Shown: piece by piece, positions 6,262-17,525 of the stretch
Layout: every line of letters begins with the position of its first letter
How positions within the stretch are numbered: the stretch's first letter is position 1
Origin: Cenarchaeum symbiosum A
GTDB taxonomy: Archaea > Thermoproteota > Nitrososphaeria > Nitrososphaerales > Nitrosopumilaceae
DNA: 32,000 nucleotides
Direction of reading: 5' to 3'
NCBI GenBank assembly: GCA_000200715.1
Contig: DP000238.1
Coordinates: 894,593 to 926,592 of the forward strand
Program-made: the position numbers and the translations under genes
Notes under the pieces: model-generated
What the model was told of the DNA's origin: nothing
Database searches by the model: none
The model's input: only the letters and a program-made list of their open reading frames with translations

Positions 6262-7359
6262 TTGGCGAAGTCTTCTGGGGCAAAGGGCCCCCGGGCACAA
6301 TTCCCCGCATACGCGGCAAGCCGCGGCGCCGCATTGCAAAGTGCGGCAATCCTGGCAGTATTGGCGCTGGCGGCATCGGCCCAGCCGGCGCTTGCCGCCG
6401 GTCCCAATGATGCAGAGCCCTCCTGTACAGAGATACACGTGCTAGTGGAACGGCCAAACGGCAAGCTCGCGTGCGTGACAGAAGAGACCGCCGGCAGGTT
6501 ATCGTGGAGAATCCTGGATGCAGAAGCCCCCGAAGGCGCGGCGCCCACGCTGTCGGATGTACCCTATGGAACACACGAGAGAAACGTCTTTGACTTTTGG
6601 AGGGCGGACTCTGCCGGCCCCGCCCCGCTTATGATATACATACACGGCGGCGGCTTCGTGAGCGGCGACAAGTCGGACGTCGACAAGGATGACAAGGGGA
6701 AGATCAAGGAGGGCCTGCTGGACAGGGGAATCTCCGTCATCTCGATAAACTATCCGTTTCTAGACGAGGCGAGAATCGACGGGATAGTGGAGAACGCGTC
6801 GCAGATCATCCCGTACGTCCAGGACAACGCCGAAGAGCTCGGCATAGACCCCGGAAGGGTGGGCATATACGGCGGGTCCGGGGGCGGGGGGATAGCGCTG
6901 CATCTTGGCCTCGGGGAGTACTCGGACCAGGTAAGCGTGATAGGGCACATAACGTCCCAGTCCACCTACGACCTGTTGCAGTGGTTTGACATACTGGGAA
7001 TAGACCCCGGTGACGTGGAGAGGGCCCCGCCGGGGCTGATCGCGGCCGTGCTGCAGCTGTACCACGTGGGAACACTCGAAGAATTCGAGGAGCCGGAGAT
7101 TGTAAAGCTGCGAAAGGCGATGGACATGCCGTCGTTCATGGATGCAGATGACCCCCCCGTATACATACAGAACTATCTCGTACATGACGGCATAGGCAAC
7201 AAGGGTGATGTCACCCACCACCCAAGCCACGCAGTATTCCTAAAGGAGAAATGCGACGAGGCAGGCCTCGAGTGCGTGCTGAATTTGGCAGGCACCCCGG
7301 AAGACAGGCGCGTCGACGCGGCGAGCTTTTTCGACAGGATGCTAAGGCAGGAATCCTAG
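6262..7359 (+). CDS. Secreted alpha/beta-hydrolase (esterase/lipase, HGGG-type)
   Basis: The N-terminus carries K/R residues followed by a hydrophobic stretch and an Ala-rich cleavage region (AAILAVLALAASAQPALAAGP). The oxyanion-hole motif IYIHGGGFVSGD and the nucleophile elbow GGSGG (G-x-S-x-G) are both present. The start is TTG, 2 nt after the giant gene's stop, so the exact start is uncertain. Confidence 0.75.
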   Translation: MAKSSGAKGPRAQFPAYAASRGAALQSAAILAVLALAASAQPALAAGPNDAEPSCTEIHVLVERPNGKLACVTEETAGRLSWRILDAEAPEGAAPTLSDVPYGTHERNVFDFWRADSAGPAPLMIYIHGGGFVSGDKSDVDKDDKGKIKEGLLDRGISVISINYPFLDEARIDGIVENASQIIPYVQDNAEELGIDPGRVGIYGGSGGGGIALHLGLGEYSDQVSVIGHITSQSTYDLLQWFDILGIDPGDVERAPPGLIAAVLQLYHVGTLEEFEEPEIVKLRKAMDMPSFMDADDPPVYIQNYLVHDGIGNKGDVTHHPSHAVFLKEKCDEAGLECVLNLAGTPEDRRVDAASFFDRMLRQES

Positions 7360-8315
7360 CCGCCCCTTGTGCCCGCAAGGCCCCGGGCATACTCGGAGCT
7401 TTTACTCCCCGGGAGGCCCTGGGTGTACCTGCGTATGGATGCATGAGATGCGCTTGCCACATCGCCGTCTATGGCCACGACATCCTTCCAGCGGCCCAGC
7501 ACATTCTGGAGAAACCCGTCGTCCATATCAAATTTCTTTTGAAACCTGCTGACGCTGCCCTCCTCCCTCAGGCTATACAGCAGGAAATACTCTGACGATG
7601 CCGTGCACAGGCCCGACAGCACATCAAAGACGAACTTTTTTGCGCGGGTGTAGCCCTGCGCCCGGGCCAGCTGTATGCAGCTCTCTGCCTCCCGCACAAA
7701 AAACCAGTCGATTGGATATATCTTGCCCTGGGGCAGCGCCCGCCTTGCCCCCTCCATCATCCTTCGGACCACATATTCTAAGTCGGGGTTCTCGGCAGTC
7801 TCCATCGCGGCAACCACGTCTGCGACGCTCTTTTGCACCTCTTTCGGATCATAGAACCGGTACGGCACGTACCTGCCCGCCTTTGAGACTATAAGATCCT
7901 CAATCGAGACGCTCGATATTGCCTCCCCGTCGGATAGCATTCCGGCCACCGTCCTGCCCCATGATTCATCCGTCATGTACAGGGAATACAGGTTGTTGTC
8001 CCAAATCTGCACGTTTATGCCGCCTGTAAAGTGAAAGTCCGCCACCTGGATGTTGTCGGCATCCCGTTCCAGATTTGACGAACAGAGCCCCGGCTGCTCC
8101 TTCATAAGCCCGACCGAGCCCCCATAATCCTCCGCCACAAAGTCAATATCAATTGTGGGCCTTACAAGGGCCCCATGTGCGGCCATTGCGGCCGACCCAA
8201 ACACGGCATATCTGAGGCCGCCCGATTCCATCAGTCTTCCATAGTGCAGTGCTGCCGGAATCCACACATCCGGCGGCAGGTGTCGGCTGGACGGGGGAGA
8301 ATCGTGCGGGTTCAT
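7356..8315 (-). CDS. Nucleotidyltransferase-fold protein, AbiEii/DUF1814-like (candidate type IV toxin)
   Basis: 319-aa ORF. The N-terminal motif YAVFGSAAMAAHGALVRPTIDIDFV fits the G-[GS]-x-A...R-x-[TS]-x-D-[IL]-D pattern of minimal nucleotidyltransferases and AbiEii. Its ATG overlaps the stop of the upstream wHTH gene by 4 nt (ATGA at 8312-8315). Confidence 0.6.
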   Translation of the reverse strand: MNPHDSPPSSRHLPPDVWIPAALHYGRLMESGGLRYAVFGSAAMAAHGALVRPTIDIDFVAEDYGGSVGLMKEQPGLCSSNLERDADNIQVADFHFTGGINVQIWDNNLYSLYMTDESWGRTVAGMLSDGEAISSVSIEDLIVSKAGRYVPYRFYDPKEVQKSVADVVAAMETAENPDLEYVVRRMMEGARRALPQGKIYPIDWFFVREAESCIQLARAQGYTRAKKFVFDVLSGLCTASSEYFLLYSLREEGSVSRFQKKFDMDDGFLQNVLGRWKDVVAIDGDVASASHASIRRYTQGLPGSKSSEYARGLAGTRGG

Positions 8316-9001
8316 GCCCTATTGGCGGCCGTGCCCGTCCTGCCTGCCATCACATCGGGCACAAATGCCAAGTCCAAATCGGACATACACTCCTGTGCGT
8401 CGCGCTCTGTCTTCTCGGCAGCCACCATTACCGGTACCGTCCTGCCCCATGATTTTGTCTGGCTCGGATATGCCTCAATGTTATCCACGGGAAAGCACTT
8501 TACGTATACCAGAGACGTGGCGCGGCCGATAGTCTCGTTGGGATACTCTGTCGTCCTTATGCCGATCCGCCTAAACTCCCCCTGTATGAGCTCCCGGGCA
8601 TCGGCGTGCCGCCCCTTCTCCACTGCCACCTGGACCATGTTCCGGAGCTCCCCCCGGAGGTACTTTGCCCTGGAAGTGCCCACAAACGCATAATCCACGC
8701 CGTGTTTTGCAAGCACGTCCGCCACCACCACGTCGGGGGCCCATATGACAAAAGACACCCATTCCGCAATCTCTCCTAACGCCCTGACCAGCGGGTGGTC
8801 CCTGTCCTTGACGCGTACAAAGACGGTCCTTCCCCTCCTGTGCGTCCTCATAATTCCCACTTTTTCAAATGCGTATACGATTCTCGATACAGTCGAGCTG
8901 GATATTGCGGTATGCTTTACTATATTGGAGATTGTCGAGCCATATATCGCAGATGTGACCACGCGGGCCTCATCAAAGGTGCCCAGGTGTTTTCTTTCCA
9001 T
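8312..9001 (-). CDS. Winged-helix DNA-binding protein with a C-terminal extension, AbiEi-like (candidate antitoxin/regulator)
   Basis: The N-terminal region GSTISNIVKHTAISSSTVSRIVYAFEKVGIMRTHRRGRTVFVRV looks like HTH plus wing, followed by a ~150-aa C-terminal domain. The ORF track starts at the GTG at 9043. However, 9002-9043 is A/T-rich promoter-like sequence with TTATATAA at 9022-9029, about 25 nt upstream of the ATG at 8999-9001, so I prefer the ATG. Confidence 0.6.
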   Translation of the reverse strand: MERKHLGTFDEARVVTSAIYGSTISNIVKHTAISSSTVSRIVYAFEKVGIMRTHRRGRTVFVRVKDRDHPLVRALGEIAEWVSFVIWAPDVVVADVLAKHGVDYAFVGTSRAKYLRGELRNMVQVAVEKGRHADARELIQGEFRRIGIRTTEYPNETIGRATSLVYVKCFPVDNIEAYPSQTKSWGRTVPVMVAAEKTERDAQECMSDLDLAFVPDVMAGRTGTAANRA

Positions 9002-9094
9002 ATATCTATTAACAAATATTCTTATATAACTTTGTATATTCACGCAGAAATGATTGTATTGGGAACAGGCGATTCACGCCTGCATTCTGATATG

Positions 9095-11690: not shown

Positions 11691-12512
11691 TCAGAGGGGC
11701 CTGCCGGCAATCCTTTCGTATGCAGAGATGTACCGCGCGGTCATCCGCTCTATAATCTCGCCAGGTATGGCAGGCGGACGGGGGGGCCTTCCTGCGGCCC
11801 GCTCCTCGTCAAATCTTTTCTTGTATCCTGCCCCATCCAGCCAGTCGCGGAGGATCTGCTTGTCAAAGGCCTCCTGGATGGCTCCCGGACTGTACTGTTC
11901 TGCGGGCCACAGCCTGCACTCGTCAGGGCCAATAGAGTCGCCGAGGGTTATGCTGCCGCCAAGCCTGCCAAATTCGAGTTTTACGTCTGCCAGCACGAAT
12001 CCCGCGGCTTCTGCCGCGACCGACATTGCATTGTACACCTCGATGGACTTTGCAGAGAGCCAGTCGTACTCTTTTTCCGTTACCAGGCCTTCAGATACCG
12101 CTGATTTTCTATCCACTGGAAGGTCGTGCTCGGACTTTGTGGTGGGATCAAAGAACGGCTCCGGGAGCCGGGACGCCAGGGGCGGAGGCCCCCCAGCCAT
12201 GCTGATCTCCCCCTTTTCCACCCGGGCTGCCATGCTGCCGTAATAATACCCCCGGACGATACACTCGATGGGGAGCATCTCCATTTTATTCACTATAATC
12301 TCGGTATCCGCGCGCCTCTCGACAAAGTGGCTCGGGATGGGGAGCCTCCTGAACCAGTACTCGGCAAACTTGCAGAGCACCTCGCCCTTGCGGGGGATCT
12401 CTTCGTGGAATTTGACATCGTATGCGGATACGCGGTCGCTGAACCGGAAGAGCAGCCTACCCCCTTCCAGCTCATAGATGTCCTTTACCTTGCCTGACGT
12501 TAGGAACCTCAA
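11691..12512 (-). CDS. purC: Phosphoribosylaminoimidazole-succinocarboxamide (SAICAR) synthase
   Basis: SAICAR synthetase signatures are present: [10 protein letters not shown] and LADVKLEFG. It begins ...GKVKDIYE and has typical length. The start is TTG at 12510-12512, so the exact start is uncertain. Confidence 0.9.
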
Positions 12513-12803
12513 CCGAAGAGCTGTGGCACGGCGCGATTTAACTTGTCCGTTCGGGGACTGTCAAGTCTGTGGACATGGGGCAAAAAGTGTCGAGCCCGGG
12601 ACATGGCAAATTTCTTTAAATATTGTCAGGCACAAAAATTATTCCATGCCCCCGCGGGTTAGCAGATTAGAGGCTGTGTCCCCACAATTTAACAGAATCG
12701 GTACTTTTACGGTATGAATACGGTATATATAGGATATCAGAACCATATTCGTCTATGCGAGGCGCATGTTAGCATATTTTATCGCCCGGGTTGGCTCGGA
12801 CTG

Positions 12804-13676
12804 ATGAGCATATCCAAGAGCAGGGCCAGGATTAGGCTTGATACTGATCGCGTGTACTACAAGGATTCTCGAATGATGACGGAGATACCCGACAATTCCA
12901 TAAACTGTGTGATTACCAGCCCCCCGTATTTTTCCATAAACGATTATTCATTGGATGGATACCAGCGGAAGAGGCATTCAGGGAATAAGGCTGCCCAGTT
13001 AGGCAACATCAAAAAATTTGAAACATACATAGGCGAATTGCTCAAGGTGTGGAGCGAGTGCGAGAGGGTCTTGCGCCCCAATGGAAAACTCATCATCAAT
13101 GCTCCGCTGATGCCCATGCTCAAAAGGGTATACAATACGCATTTTAACCGGCACATATTCAACATACACTCGGAGATACAGAGGTCTATACTGGATGATA
13201 CCGGCCTGTTCCTGCTCGACGTATACATCTGGAACCGTACAAACCCATCCAAAAAACCGATGTTCGGCAGCTATCCATACCCGAGCAATTTCTATGCCCA
13301 GAATACGATAGAGTTCATTGCCGTCTACGTAAAGGACGGCAAGTCTGACAACAACATATCAAAAACGCGCAAGAGACGGAGCCGGCTGACCCAGAAGGAA
13401 TGGGTGGAGTATACCAAACAGGTGTGGGACATACCCATGCCCAACAAGGGGGACAGCGCGTTCGGCAAGCATCCCGCAATAATGCCGGAAGAGATACCGC
13501 GCAGATGCATCCGCCTGTTTACGTTTGAGGGGGATGTCGTACTCGACCCGTTCTCCGGTTCGGGTACCACGCTAAAGATGGCCAAAAAACTCAACCGAAA
13601 GTACATAGGCTATGAGATAATGAAGTCGTACAAGGGCCATATAACGGAAAAATTGGGAGAGGCGGATGACGAATAA
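12804..13676 (+). CDS. Beta-class DNA methyltransferase (N4-cytosine/N6-adenine family; SPPY motif suggests m4C)
   Basis: Motif IV (VITSPPYF) lies N-terminal of motif I (VLDPFSGSGTT), and HPAIMPEEIPRRCI is present, as in the N6_N4_Mtase family. The ORF track starts at 12714. I prefer the ATG at 12804 because catattttat (12773-12782) sits about 26 nt upstream of it. Confidence 0.85.
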   Translation: MSISKSRARIRLDTDRVYYKDSRMMTEIPDNSINCVITSPPYFSINDYSLDGYQRKRHSGNKAAQLGNIKKFETYIGELLKVWSECERVLRPNGKLIINAPLMPMLKRVYNTHFNRHIFNIHSEIQRSILDDTGLFLLDVYIWNRTNPSKKPMFGSYPYPSNFYAQNTIEFIAVYVKDGKSDNNISKTRKRRSRLTQKEWVEYTKQVWDIPMPNKGDSAFGKHPAIMPEEIPRRCIRLFTFEGDVVLDPFSGSGTTLKMAKKLNRKYIGYEIMKSYKGHITEKLGEADDE

Positions 13677-14445
13677 ACTATCCCACATGGACTGCATCAG
13701 GTTCCTGGAAGGCATAGGGGACAAAACGGTCGACCTGGCCGTAGTCGACCCGCCATACAACCTCAAGGTGGACAAGTGGGACACCTTCGAGTCCCAGGAA
13801 GATTTTCTCAAGTTTACCTTTGCGTGGATGGACTGCCTTGTCCCAAAGCTGAAAGAGACCGCCGGCCTGTATGTGTTCAACACCCCCTTCAACTCCGCAT
13901 ACATGCTCCAGCACCTGGTAGAACAGGGATTGATGTTCCAGAACTGGATTACCTGGGACAAAAGGGACGGCATGTCATATACAAAAAAGCGGTATGCCAA
14001 CGGCCAGGAGACCATCCTGTTTTTTACCAAGAGTGGCAAGTATACGTTCAACCATGATGACATACGCGTGCCCTACGAGTCTGTTCAGCGGATAGAGCAC
14101 GCAAAGACACGGGGCATATTGAAAAACGGCAAGAGATGGTATCCCAATTCCAGGGGCAGGATGTGCGGGGAGATTTGGCACATGAGTAGTGAGCGCCACA
14201 AGGTCAAGGTCAACGGAAAAGTGCAGAGGCTCCCCCACAAGACGGTAAAACCGCTGGACATGATTAAGCGCATAATCACTGCCAGCAGTAATGAGGGCGA
14301 CTTGGTAATTGACTGCTTTGCGGGATCCGGCACAACAGCGCTCGCGTGCAAGCAGCTGAATAGGAATTTCATCGGGTGTGACAGCAACGAGCAGTACGTT
14401 CTGTCTGCACGCAGGCGCATACGGACCGGTGTTATTCACATATGA
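13666..14445 (+). CDS. Beta-class DNA methyltransferase (DPPY motif, likely N6-adenine)
   Basis: Motif IV AVVDPPYN, then HKTVKPLDMIKRII, then motif I VIDCFAGSGTTALA and FIGCDSNEQY. It overlaps the preceding methyltransferase gene by 11 nt. Confidence 0.9.
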   Translation: MTNKLSHMDCIRFLEGIGDKTVDLAVVDPPYNLKVDKWDTFESQEDFLKFTFAWMDCLVPKLKETAGLYVFNTPFNSAYMLQHLVEQGLMFQNWITWDKRDGMSYTKKRYANGQETILFFTKSGKYTFNHDDIRVPYESVQRIEHAKTRGILKNGKRWYPNSRGRMCGEIWHMSSERHKVKVNGKVQRLPHKTVKPLDMIKRIITASSNEGDLVIDCFAGSGTTALACKQLNRNFIGCDSNEQYVLSARRRIRTGVIHI

Positions 14446-14739
14446 CTGACAGGTATAATTTCCCAAGGGCTGATCCCGGCAATCCTGCGTCGATATACCT
14501 GGCAGGCAGGATAGATTGTGATAATTACCGCGGTTCCGTGTCATCACAGCACAACAGATACACCATGGCAGGGGGCCACGGATCAGGCTAGAATGGTAGA
14601 GAACATCATGCAGAAGATACTGATCAAGATGTTGGTCTACAACCGGTTTGTGCTCATGCGCACATGATGTATGAAGGAGATGACACTACACTGACCTTTT
14701 AGCCGAGTTATGGAACAATTTACTCGGTATTTGTAATTT

Positions 14740-15372
14740 CTAATATTTTTTTAGAAATTCTTTCAACTCATTTATTGTCAGGGCGAACACTGTTTTTTTG
14801 TTGGCCATGTCTTCTAATTTTTCCATTTTGGTTTGATTGGCCATACCGTTGTTTGTATTGTAAAATGAGCCGTCGGCAATGGCCAAAAATATGGTATTGG
14901 AATCCTTTGAGATATTGGCAGAATCAATAAAACATTGCAAATCGTTGTACTGGTTATCTTGATGTCCTCCAGAGTCTTTGGTATATTTGTGATACGCAAA
15001 GAACTCCTTTCCATGATATTCCCAGTAAAAATCAATACTTTTACAGGTTGGATCCATTCCCTTTTTTTTCATTTCTTTTTGATCGATAATCTTCCCATTT
15101 TCTATGAATACATGTTTCGATAATTTCTTAAATTTTTTAACATCTTTTATTTTTGTGATAAAATTGGCAGCAGCTATTTCATACATATTCTGGCGTATTG
15201 GATCCACCACAAAAAACCATGCAAACATTTTATCATTTTTAATTTTATTTTTTACTTTGATATAATTATACTTAGTACGCTCACAGTATTTTTTCACTTT
15301 ATTGTTCGATATGATATTCTTCTCTGCATTTTCCAACATTTTTTCCGCCCTTATCTTTTCATAATCAAGCAT
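14740..15372 (-). CDS. Candidate type II restriction endonuclease (small Lys-rich protein translationally coupled to a methyltransferase)
   Basis: The call rests on context only. It lies immediately downstream of the NPPW methyltransferase, with an 8-nt start/stop overlap (ATGCTTGA at 15365-15372), and shares the same strongly AT-rich composition. I did not recognise a catalytic motif with confidence. The track's longer start at 15468 runs inside the upstream gene. Confidence 0.5.
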   Translation of the reverse strand: MLDYEKIRAEKMLENAEKNIISNNKVKKYCERTKYNYIKVKNKIKNDKMFAWFFVVDPIRQNMYEIAAANFITKIKDVKKFKKLSKHVFIENGKIIDQKEMKKKGMDPTCKSIDFYWEYHGKEFFAYHKYTKDSGGHQDNQYNDLQCFIDSANISKDSNTIFLAIADGSFYNTNNGMANQTKMEKLEDMANKKTVFALTINELKEFLKKY

Positions 15373-16324
15373 ATCTTTCAATAATCCCCCTTGCTGTTGC
15401 ATAGTCCAACCTGCGCCTGTACTGCCCGTCCCGACGCAATCCCTTGAACGGGGCGAGAAACACATCATGCGTATTTTTCCGATATCGGTACAATGCCTTG
15501 TTCAGACGGAGAATCGTTCTGTCTAAATTTGTAAAATTCCCCCCAATTTTTGTTATCAATCTGTCACTGTGTTTTACACTTCTGGCGACTTCATCCCCCC
15601 TGCAAAATCTTATGGTAGGTCCAGCCGTGCTGTCAATGCAGATCAACCCCAGGTTTCCGCTGGGATGGTTAAAGCTTATATTTTTTACATGGCTTTGTTG
15701 CTGCATTGAATAATGAATTTCCCTCAACTTGTCGAGTGAGCCTATCAGTTTGTTGTCGTGGTATATTTTTGTATTATTTTTATTTTGTTTGGTAAATAAC
15801 GCAATACAAGCCGGGTTTTCCGTATCATTGAACATGAGACTGTTTACAAATATTACGGTATCAAGCCTGTCCCTAAACAAATTTGTCCGTAGATATGTCC
15901 CTGGAACTATATATGCCACATTCTCACAGTTATCCAGTGCCAGCTTCAGACAATATTGATAAAGATTCTCAAATCCAATATCTGGAAATTTGATCTTGCG
16001 TCTTTTAGCGGAATAGTTTGCAAGCCATGGCGGATTGCTCACGCATACGTTATACCCCGTAGGAAAATCCCGTATGGTGTCCCTCACCTTGACTTGGTTG
16101 TTTTTTGGCACAATGTCATACGAGCAAAAGGACTTGCAAAGATCTTCTTCCTTGAGCATGGTTATTATGTTATTTTTTCCTGCAAACGGCTCCAATATTT
16201 TTTTATTTTTTAATTCTATTTTCCTAGCCCATGCCTTAAACGGTCTAAGCTTGAAGGGGTTATTTGTTGTAAAATAAACACCATTCTCTCGTTTAGCCTG
16301 CATGATCATATTCTGCCGAGTCAT
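15365..16324 (-). CDS. Gamma-class N6-adenine DNA methyltransferase (NPPW)
   Basis: GVYFTT, then motif I ILEPFAGKNNI, then about 45 aa later motif IV VCVSNPPW. A C-terminal ~200 aa could be the target-recognition domain. The gene is strongly AT-rich relative to its neighbours. Confidence 0.8.
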   Translation of the reverse strand: MTRQNMIMQAKRENGVYFTTNNPFKLRPFKAWARKIELKNKKILEPFAGKNNIITMLKEEDLCKSFCSYDIVPKNNQVKVRDTIRDFPTGYNVCVSNPPWLANYSAKRRKIKFPDIGFENLYQYCLKLALDNCENVAYIVPGTYLRTNLFRDRLDTVIFVNSLMFNDTENPACIALFTKQNKNNTKIYHDNKLIGSLDKLREIHYSMQQQSHVKNISFNHPSGNLGLICIDSTAGPTIRFCRGDEVARSVKHSDRLITKIGGNFTNLDRTILRLNKALYRYRKNTHDVFLAPFKGLRRDGQYRRRLDYATARGIIERYA

Positions 16325-16344
16325 CCTGCCCCTTCCCCTTACCT

Positions 16345-16368
16345 GTTTATAACCTTTAAAATATAACT
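16345..16368 (-). promoter_or_regulatory. TATA-like promoter element of the NPPW methyltransferase/endonuclease operon
   Basis: The minus strand reads GTTATATTTTAAAGGTTATAAAC. TTATAAA is centred about 25 nt upstream of the ATG at 16324, consistent with a leaderless archaeal transcript. Confidence 0.5.
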
Positions 16369-16453
16369 ATTGTGCCAGGAAGCCCAAGTTAGGCACAAAA
16401 TTGGCCCACGGGCCGGTTGGTTAATAGGATCCAGGCCCGCCTCTACCATTCGT

Positions 16454-16831
16454 TCATGATCCCGCCGCATCTCCCGCATGCCCCCGTTTCACGTCTGCCT
16501 GCCCGATATGCCCCGGCCCGAACTCCGGGGCCCTCCTAGCTCCGACAGCCCCCGCAGGCCCGCAGTATCTCCAAGCCTTTTTGCAGTCATCATACTCGCA
16601 ACGCCCGTTTCCCATGGTCTTTGTGTTTATCGGAGCCATCGCACGCACCAGGGACGGCCCACAATGGGATCTTACGGGCCGGCACGGCTTTACGTCCTGC
16701 CCGGGCGACACGCCCTCAAAGTGAATCCGCCAGGGTATTACCTTTGTGAACATACAGCGGAACCCGGTCATCAATGTGTGGTCTGTCTCACAGGTCTCGG
16801 CCCCTGGCCATTCCTTTGTAGTTACCGTCAT
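16454..16831 (-). CDS. Cys-rich hypothetical protein (possibly the 3' part of a frameshifted gene)
   Basis: 125-aa ORF with host-like codon usage and 8 Cys residues. It has no recognisable family and overlaps ORF 16788..17108 by 44 nt in another frame. Confidence 0.35.
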   Translation of the reverse strand: MTVTTKEWPGAETCETDHTLMTGFRCMFTKVIPWRIHFEGVSPGQDVKPCRPVRSHCGPSLVRAMAPINTKTMGNGRCEYDDCKKAWRYCGPAGAVGARRAPEFGPGHIGQADVKRGHAGDAAGS

Positions 16832-17108
16832 GCAGCCCCTGTTCCCCGAGTGTGCGTGTCAGGCGAGCCTGTCGACCGCGCCCTTCCCCGTCTTTGAGCC
16901 GTCCCGCATCAAGGCACTGTGCGCCATTTACGCATGCATCCGCCAAGCCAGCCGCTTCCGCGGCGATATTCCCGCCTAGTCCCATGTGCAGGGGCGCAAA
17001 ATTGTGGCGTATGCGCACGTGCATGTCGTGCTCCGTTACGCCGACCCGTACAAGGTACGTGCCAAAGAACATCCAGGTCAGAGCAATGACTCCCGCCACG
17101 GCGCCCAT
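16788..17108 (-). CDS. Hypothetical protein with an N-terminal TM helix (possibly the 5' part of a frameshifted gene)
   Basis: 106-aa ORF. MGAVAGVIALTWMFFGTYLVRVG looks like a signal anchor. Codon usage is host-like and there is no recognisable family. Confidence 0.3.
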   Translation of the reverse strand: MGAVAGVIALTWMFFGTYLVRVGVTEHDMHVRIRHNFAPLHMGLGGNIAAEAAGLADACVNGAQCLDAGRLKDGEGRGRQARLTRTLGEQGLHDGNYKGMARGRDL

Positions 17109-17178
17109 CAGGCATCGTGCACATATTCACGGTGCGTATACCCTACATTATCCTAAAGATTCACGGCCGGGACACACG

Positions 17179-17460
17179 CTAGTCTTCCATCTCGACGCCC
17201 TTCCAGAACGCCACGTGGCCCCTGATCTTGGCCGCCGCATCATTGGGCTCCGGATAGTACCATGCACAGTCGCTGTTGGTCTTGCCGTTTGCCGTCACAG
17301 AATAATAGCTGGCGGTGCCCTTCCAGCCGCAAAACGACGTAAAGCCGCTCTCCACCAGGAACTCTTTTTTTACAGAGTCCGCCGGAAAGTAGTGGTTCCC
17401 CTCTATAACCACGGTATCATCGCTCTCTGCGAGCACGACTCCGTTCCATACCGCCTTCAT
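17179..17460 (-). CDS. DUF427 domain protein
   Basis: MKAVWNGVVLAESDDTVVIEGNHYFPADSV...CGWKGTASYYSV...CAWYYPEPNDAAAKIRGHVAFWKGV matches the DUF427 pattern along its full length. I prefer the start at M14 of the track ORF. GTTTTATTGG is centred about 26 nt upstream of 17460. Confidence 0.8.
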   Translation of the reverse strand: MKAVWNGVVLAESDDTVVIEGNHYFPADSVKKEFLVESGFTSFCGWKGTASYYSVTANGKTNSDCAWYYPEPNDAAAKIRGHVAFWKGVEMED

Positions 17461-17525
17461 GATTTGTATGCGATGGTGCTCCAATAAAACAATTTCCATG
17501 CGCAGAATCCCCCAAGGGTAAATCG

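Follow-up and report, generated by a model that had tools for sequence, protein, structure and literature searches.

A probable decayed MboII-type restriction-modification operon, cut off at an insertion sequence relic, beside a younger methyltransferase-nuclease cassette in Cenarchaeum symbiosum A

Upstream of purC in the genome of Cenarchaeum symbiosum A is a group of three DNA methyltransferase (MTase) genes and one small nuclease candidate, contained within a stretch of 32,000 nucleotides (nt) that is referred to here as the window, and whose numbering is used unless genome positions are named (bases 894,593-926,592 of a single-contig genome of 2,045,086 bp and 57.4% GC). The locus most likely holds two independent type II restriction-modification (RM) units of different age, a decayed MboII-type pair and a recently arrived complete cassette, a reading to which we assign a probability of about 0.85. 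Unit A (12804-14591, plus strand) would originally have been an MboII-type type IIS operon of the order M2-M1-R, encoding a nuclease of about 415 amino acids (aa) with an HNH-like motif at its C-terminus; its two MTase genes are intact and long resident, and are left today as orphans. Unit B (14740-16324, minus strand) would be a two-gene cassette of recent arrival, consisting of a gamma-class MTase and a 210-aa protein (R210), and presumably represents a working type IIP-like system. The four genes, their motif classes and both start/stop overlaps had been recognized in a first-pass annotation of the window, and all four open reading frames (ORFs) were found again at the same coordinates with the expected motif orders (Table 1).

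Both MTases of unit A match the full profile of the Pfam family N6_N4_Mtase (PF01555), with E-values of 2.5e-48 for M2 and 4.7e-60 for M1. The sequence TSPPYF is found early in M2 and DPFSGSGTT late, and the corresponding motifs in M1 are DPPY and DCFAGSGTT; the location of SPPY or DPPY near the N-terminus and of FxGSGTT near the C-terminus places both proteins in the beta class. The two genes overlap by 11 nt. M1 aligns with M.MboIIA (PDB 1g60) without a gap over residues 3-248 (E 9.3e-109; 148/246 positions, or 60%, identical), and M2 shares 63% identity with the M2 protein of the Moraxella bovis MboII locus and 61-71% with those of intact M2-M1-R operons, retaining every invariant column. 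The earlier suggestion that paired beta-class MTases serve an asymmetric, type IIS site is therefore upheld, the pair being of the M2/M1 type of MboII. The sites of the MboII system are GAAGA and TCTTC. By homology to the M. bovis prototype, M1 would place N6-methyladenine (m6A) on GAAGA and M2 N4-methylcytosine (m4C) on the complementary TCTTC. M1.MboII has been described as the adenine methylase and M2.MboII as the cytosine methylase of an asymmetric-site system (Furmanek-Blaszk et al. 2009, as cited in PMC3990576).

When an alignment of homologues of the SPPY enzyme was scanned against species genomes, 80 loci were obtained. One of these, in Moraxella bovis CCUG 2133 (L080), carries a DPPY gene whose product is 100% identical to 1g60 and is hence the prototype MboII locus; its M2 and M1 genes are followed by a frame of 422 codons, overlapping M1 and matching the R.MboII profile over almost its full length. 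Intact M2-M1-R operons make up 45 of the 80 loci, while six have M2 and M1 with fragments of R and five have M2 and M1 with R undetectable; M2 stands without an adjacent M1 at 15 further loci, and the last nine could not be judged. The nearest relative with the same methylase pair (G015, of the same family and deposited as Cenarchaeum sp.) encodes it at 72% and 62% aa identity in a low-GC island, followed by an overlapping gene of 412 codons. The pair was not found in the four same-genus genomes searched. Operons of this type vary elsewhere: M2 and M1 are fused in L020 (558 aa) and M1 and R in L058 (a 674-codon frame), R is split by stops or insertions in L027, L052 and L089, and M2-M1 pairs lack R in L038, L040, L042, L070 and L077.

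The evidence that the pair in C. symbiosum A has lost its nuclease comes from the short frame that follows M1. The 412-aa protein of G015 has 88 homologues, some of which carry the NCBI names 'Type-2 restriction enzyme MboII' or 'type IIS restriction endonuclease', and the family has a common C-terminal motif, ELHHVVPL...NMxYI..xxHA, that is probably of the HNH type. A profile built from 26 of these R.MboII-family proteins found a single match among the 43,361 ORFs of the complete six-frame translation, namely a frame of 49 codons (MTDRYNFPRADPGNPASIYLAGRIDCDNYRGSVSSQHNRYTMAGGHGSG; E 2.6e-7) directly behind M1, so that the gene order M2-M1-R and its coupled starts and stops are kept. This stump covers positions 4-41 of the 410-position profile and bears the family motif NYRGxxSQHNRY, and the C-terminal HNH part is absent. 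Rearrangement instead of deletion was considered and rejected: the missing part of R was sought throughout the genome, and the six-frame ORFs contain no other copy or fragment of the family, a result that favours deletion over inversion or translocation. Since no other copy of the nuclease exists in the genome, the beta pair is an orphan remnant, one of the readings that the first-pass annotation had offered. Its further statement that no second nuclease is present holds for an intact gene, but overlooked the cognate stump.

The point at which the stump ends is also the point at which an insertion sequence (IS) begins. Similarity to the nuclease family stops at about 14570 and similarity to the IS starts at 14575-14581; the sequence that follows recurs at eight other genomic positions with 73-86% identity. 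The longer copies define an element of about 1 kb with frameshifted frames that match DDE_Tnp_1_5 (E 7.8e-7) and, weakly, DDE_Tnp_1, and which is thus a decayed IS5-like element. The window holds one end of this element and no second end, nor a transposase gene with two terminal inverted repeats, and the copy at the locus is accordingly a relic. The R gene would have been deleted past codon ~43-46, leaving a break that adjoins the last 140 nt of the dead IS. In the most economical order of events, the IS would have inserted in or beside R, after which a deletion would have removed the remainder of R together with most of the IS. C. symbiosum A is reported to lack intact IS (PMC6563490), a zero count that the relic-only state of the element at this locus fits. 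The decayed family is present at genome positions 1,217,482-1,219,343 and at seven other sites (e.g., 1,063,176; 1,091,606-1,092,533; 2,035,656-2,036,700) and in one place at least four partial copies stand in tandem, with intervals of 576 nt between the last three; given the zero count in PMC6563490, these IS5-like relics may be unrecorded so far.

Base composition separates the two units in time. The computed GC profile is not uniform, running from 0.56-0.61 in the flanks to 0.45-0.53 in the beta pair and 0.27-0.43 in the convergent pair, so that the two-step shift noted earlier by eye is present as two levels below that of the flanks. Individual genes have GC contents of 0.583 (purC), 0.483 (M2), 0.518 (M1), 0.310 (R210) and 0.406 (gamma MTase), against 0.574 for the genome, in which 1.4% of 900-nt windows lie under 0.40 and 8.1% under 0.50. 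At third codon positions, the GC content (GC3) of M2 is 0.653 and that of M1 0.712, which rank at the 28th and 57th percentiles of 1027 long ORFs; the values for R210 (0.365) and the gamma MTase (0.450) rank at the 0.7th and 2.7th. At codon positions 1 and 2, M2 and M1 fall in the bottom 1-2%. The intermediate GC content of the beta pair is thus a product of its amino acid composition, its silent sites being already at host equilibrium. In M. bovis the GC3 of the same genes is 0.25-0.29, and in G015 it is 0.40-0.47. The host-like GC3 of M2 and M1 points to long residence in a high-GC lineage and the low GC3 of R210 and the gamma MTase to recent arrival, and the proposal that the DNA was acquired in two events, or stands at two stages of amelioration, is well supported.

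In the gamma MTase of unit B, EPFAGKNN (motif I; residues ~45-52) precedes SNPPWL (motif IV, with NPPW at 97-100), which is the gamma order, and a target-recognition domain occupies the C-terminal part. No Pfam family scores above threshold. Its AlphaFold2 (AF2) model has a predicted local distance difference test score (pLDDT) of 90.2, and the best Foldseek match is M.TaqI (E 1.8e-11, probability 1.0), followed by M.BseCI, CamA and HsdM. It has more than 110 homologues, with a homologue of R210 downstream of many of them. The R210 family comprises 33 homologues of ~210-230 aa, whose conserved N-terminal (M)-x-DYE supports the choice of the 210-aa start. The Pfam family Tsp45I is matched by 23 of 30 members at E ≤ 0.01 (best 4.7e-8), and R210 itself matches the PADLOC family REase_II (E 1.8e-6). 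The top Foldseek neighbours of its AF2 model (pLDDT 93.5) are all PD-(D/E)XK nucleases, including the R.BspD6I small subunit, BstEII, Can2, MGME1 and RecU; the Tsp45I family has been assigned to the same superfamily (Steczkiewicz et al. 2012, PMC3424549). Residues D114, K129, Q138-D139-N140-Q141 and D167 are invariant; D114 opens one strand, K129 closes the strand after it and QDNQ falls in the following helix, an arrangement that may represent a variant active site. The middle acidic residue of the catalytic motif does not occupy its canonical position. None of R210, the gamma MTase and the 412-aa R protein has a match in a sequence search of solved structures.

The cassette recurs independently of unit A. 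An overlapping gene of ~313-326 aa directly precedes the R210 homologue in L002, L003 and the near-identical L004/L005 (four contigs from three unrelated metagenomic contexts), and a same-genus genome (L019) has the pair at another locus (MTase 56%, nuclease 44% identical). A second, paralogous pair is encoded in C. symbiosum A itself at genome positions 1,758,522-1,760,097 (minus strand), with 47% identity in the MTase and 40% in the nuclease; it is more ameliorated, its GC content of 0.43-0.51 marking it as older than the cassette in the window, and that a single genome has two such divergent members of the family suggests two specificities. No beta-class methylase was found near any of these cassettes. 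The partner downstream of the MTase in L108 is N-terminally truncated and covers profile positions 47-214 only; together with relatives in which it is missing (see below), this indicates that the cassette, too, loses its nuclease. The homologues in L107-L109 come from sponge-type metagenome-assembled genomes (a Thaumarchaeota archaeon and Ca. Poribacteria). With respect to sites, GTAAC/GTTAC (GTWAC) is strongly under-represented genome-wide (observed/expected [O/E] ratio 0.69, 0.6th percentile of 5-mers under a Markov model) and the Tsp45I site GTSAC is not (O/E 0.98); the rarity of GTWAC might reflect one of the host's many RM systems.

Several observations weigh against the two-unit interpretation. 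GAAGA is over-represented genome-wide (O/E 1.33) and thus offers no footprint of past MboII-type restriction, which makes it uninformative as a test of site avoidance. The four proteins are predicted to be active, and their specificities, like the succession of IS insertion and deletion, are inferred. The match of R210 to Tsp45I (E 1.4e-4) is confined to the C-terminal part and, at 21.9 bits, stays below the gathering cut-off of 25; its structural matches in Foldseek are weak (E 3.9e-3 at best, TM-scores ~0.3-0.4), YHK occupies the place of the canonical (D/E)XK triad, and two relatives of the gamma MTase (L107, L109) have no detectable R210 partner, so that the pairing is not universal. On these grounds R210 could be regarded as something other than a restriction nuclease, and the gamma methylase as another orphan with an unrelated neighbour. 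This is distinctly unlikely, given that the overlapping order of the two genes is conserved across archaea and bacteria and that the family-wide Tsp45I matches, the REase_II match and the structural neighbours all point to a nuclease. The assembly, which derives from a natural population of an uncultured symbiont, also raises the prospect that the truncation of R is an artefact or a minority variant, and that the population carries an intact MboII-type system. The junction falls, however, at a genuine relic of a dispersed IS, which runs up to its terminal repeat, and the 2.05-Mb assembly has no other fragment of R; we regard such an artefact as very improbable.

The first-pass annotation had considered that three methylases guard against the single 210-aa nuclease, or that the island is a new composite system; the adjacency and convergence of the genes, with one intact nuclease candidate among them, speak for such a multi-methylase arrangement. 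Neither proposal is supported, and both are scarcely credible: the gamma-MTase/R210 pair is self-contained in at least five other contexts without beta-class MTases, and the beta pair is as a rule accompanied by a dedicated nuclease of ~415 aa, as in the 45 intact loci described above, of which nuclease a stump remains here. The sharp difference in GC3 between the units and the IS relic that separates them argue likewise. The locus is a case of ordinary gain and decay of defence genes and not a new composite system. It is possible, though less likely than not, that the beta pair has been domesticated and is maintained by selection, serving as an epigenetic mark or protecting against re-invading MboII-type systems. 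Neither ORF is interrupted and all conserved columns are kept, their synonymous sites are fully ameliorated while the proteins are still 60-70% identical to working homologues, an intact R is missing from 11 of the 56 judgeable M2-M1 pairs elsewhere, and C. symbiosum A is reported to have 17 orphan type II MTases along with a single MTase-MTase pair (PMC10609329). Amelioration may, however, predate the loss of R, which appears to be recent in that the stump is identical to one homologue at 14 of 15 positions across the NYRG...RYTM motif, and the absence of the pair from the same-genus genomes searched also counts against this reading. More doubtful still is the idea that the gamma-MTase/R210 cassette came with or via the IS5-like element and destroyed the resident nuclease gene in doing so. 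Such a replacement of one RM system by another would be survivable only through continued protection of the chromosome by the resident methylases. If true, and if it is how orphans commonly arise in this host, a succession of take-overs among the RM elements that circulate in the sponge microbiome would explain its ~17 orphan methylases.

Table 1. Positions of features at the locus upstream of purC (window coordinates).
Feature	Position	Strand	Description
purC-M2 repeat	12553..12709		MITE-like, ~150 nt, partly palindromic, between purC start and M2 gene
M2	12804..13676	+	Beta-class SPPY amino-MTase, M2.MboII homologue (predicted N4-cytosine, TCTTC strand)
M1	13666..14445	+	Beta-class DPPY N6-adenine MTase, M1.MboII / M.MboIIA homologue (predicted GAAGA)
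Nuclease stump	14442..14591	+	R.MboII family, 49 codons, ATG overlaps M1 stop (ATGA)
IS relic	14581..14719	+	3' end (last ~140 nt including terminal repeat) of decayed ~1-kb IS5-like element
R210	14740..15372	-	210-aa type II restriction endonuclease candidate, distant Tsp45I-family PD-(D/E)XK fold
Gamma MTase	15365..16324	-	NPPW N6-adenine DNA MTase, coupled to R210 by 8-nt overlap
Right junction	16325..16453		Putative gamma MTase promoter region; GC rising to host level

Between purC and M2 lies a repeat resembling a miniature inverted-repeat transposable element (MITE), which recurs five times elsewhere in the genome at 78-87% identity; its ends, GGCTCTGTTA.../...TGACAGAGTC, are inverted, and a GGGACATG/CATGTCCC hairpin lies in its interior. 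The other copies are found at 609.8, 611.0, 612.8, 755.0 and 1428.6 kb of the genome, three of them within 3 kb. A direct repeat formed by GTCAGGCACAAAA (12625) and GTTAGGCACAAAA (16388) was examined as an att site or target duplication and rejected as chance, since its left copy lies inside the MITE-like repeat and the alignment at the right junction scores 21 against a shuffle maximum of 26. An imperfect inverted repeat (14580-14601 / 16441-16462; 18/22) brackets the IS relic and unit B, with its right arm near the return to host GC, and was given low weight: its score of 24 compares with 23 for the best of 300 shuffles, and its left arm is internal IS sequence. The right junction has no repeat copies elsewhere in the genome; a TTATAAA box on the minus strand, ~25 nt 5' of the gamma MTase ATG, is a putative promoter element. 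No tRNA genes were found in the locus, and Rfam gave no match over 12000-17000.

Among same-genus genomes, purC is ~60% identical and synteny stops exactly at its 5' end, so that no empty site can be obtained from relatives. In the congener G003, the block adjoining purC maps more than 500 kb from the locus in the present genome. On the right side, a conserved DUF427 gene (17179-17499) is not linked to purC in relatives, in which 16400-17190 has no counterpart. The segment 16454-17178 has host-like GC and overlapping 'Cys-rich' ORFs on the minus strand and is without a nucleotide-level counterpart in 20 relatives, and the strain-specific region therefore reaches past the low-GC cassette to DUF427. 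The whole of 12513-17178 (4.7 kb) is strain-specific and lies at a rearrangement breakpoint. Elsewhere in the window, a two-gene module at 7356-9043 (minus strand) has no PADLOC match to AbiE; its 243-aa protein has weak matches to CARF3/Csa3 and PDC-M05A (E ~1e-4), and its 319-aa protein has none.

A survey of archaeal RM systems based on REBASE counted 25 RM loci in C. symbiosum A and reported one of the largest collections of orphan methylases for this organism (PMC10609329). The beta pair is very probably the MTase-MTase pair catalogued there, and the two gamma-MTase/R210 cassettes may be its two complete systems; the supplementary tables of that survey do not list the locus or its predicted site, and no description of the break between stump and IS relic was found in it. 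The gene content is thus largely catalogued already, and what is new is the assignment of the pair to the MboII type, the stump of its nuclease, the recognition of an IS relic where that gene breaks off and the dating of the units relative to each other. The locus leaves current understanding of RM biology unchanged, and provides a clean, datable snapshot of the birth of orphan methyltransferases in which the stump, the IS relic and the ameliorated intact pair are all visible. It leads to the predictions that the DNA of Cenarchaeum symbiosum carries m6A at GAAGA and m4C at TCTTC, and it draws attention to a compact, uncharacterized cassette of an M.TaqI-like methylase and a 210-aa Tsp45I-related nuclease that occurs twice in this genome and is common to sponge- and gut-associated microbes.

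In comparison with known systems, unit A shares with the MboII locus of M. bovis the same two beta-class methylases in the same order and an R gene that starts at the M1 stop, and the stump retains the N-terminal NYRG..SQHNRY motif of the family. It differs in that the nuclease is cut to 49 codons with the HNH-like C-terminal part missing, that M2 and M1 overlap instead of lying ~660 nt apart, and that the host is a high-GC thaumarchaeon to whose GC3 the genes have ameliorated. The gamma MTase of unit B resembles M.TaqI and other gamma-class N6-adenine MTases in its motif order (I, then IV as NPPW), its two-domain fold and its best structural match, although only ~13% of residues are identical. 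R210 corresponds to Tsp45I (PF06300) in its C-terminal ~100 residues, in its predicted PD-(D/E)XK fold and in having an N6-adenine methylase as partner, whereas its 210 aa match only positions 156-254 of the 260-position profile, at a score below the gathering value, and its N-terminal helical half is unrelated. As with other orphan MTases that arise from the loss of a type II nuclease, the methylases of unit A have outlived their nuclease; the difference is that the mechanism of loss is visible here, in a stump that stands against an IS relic.

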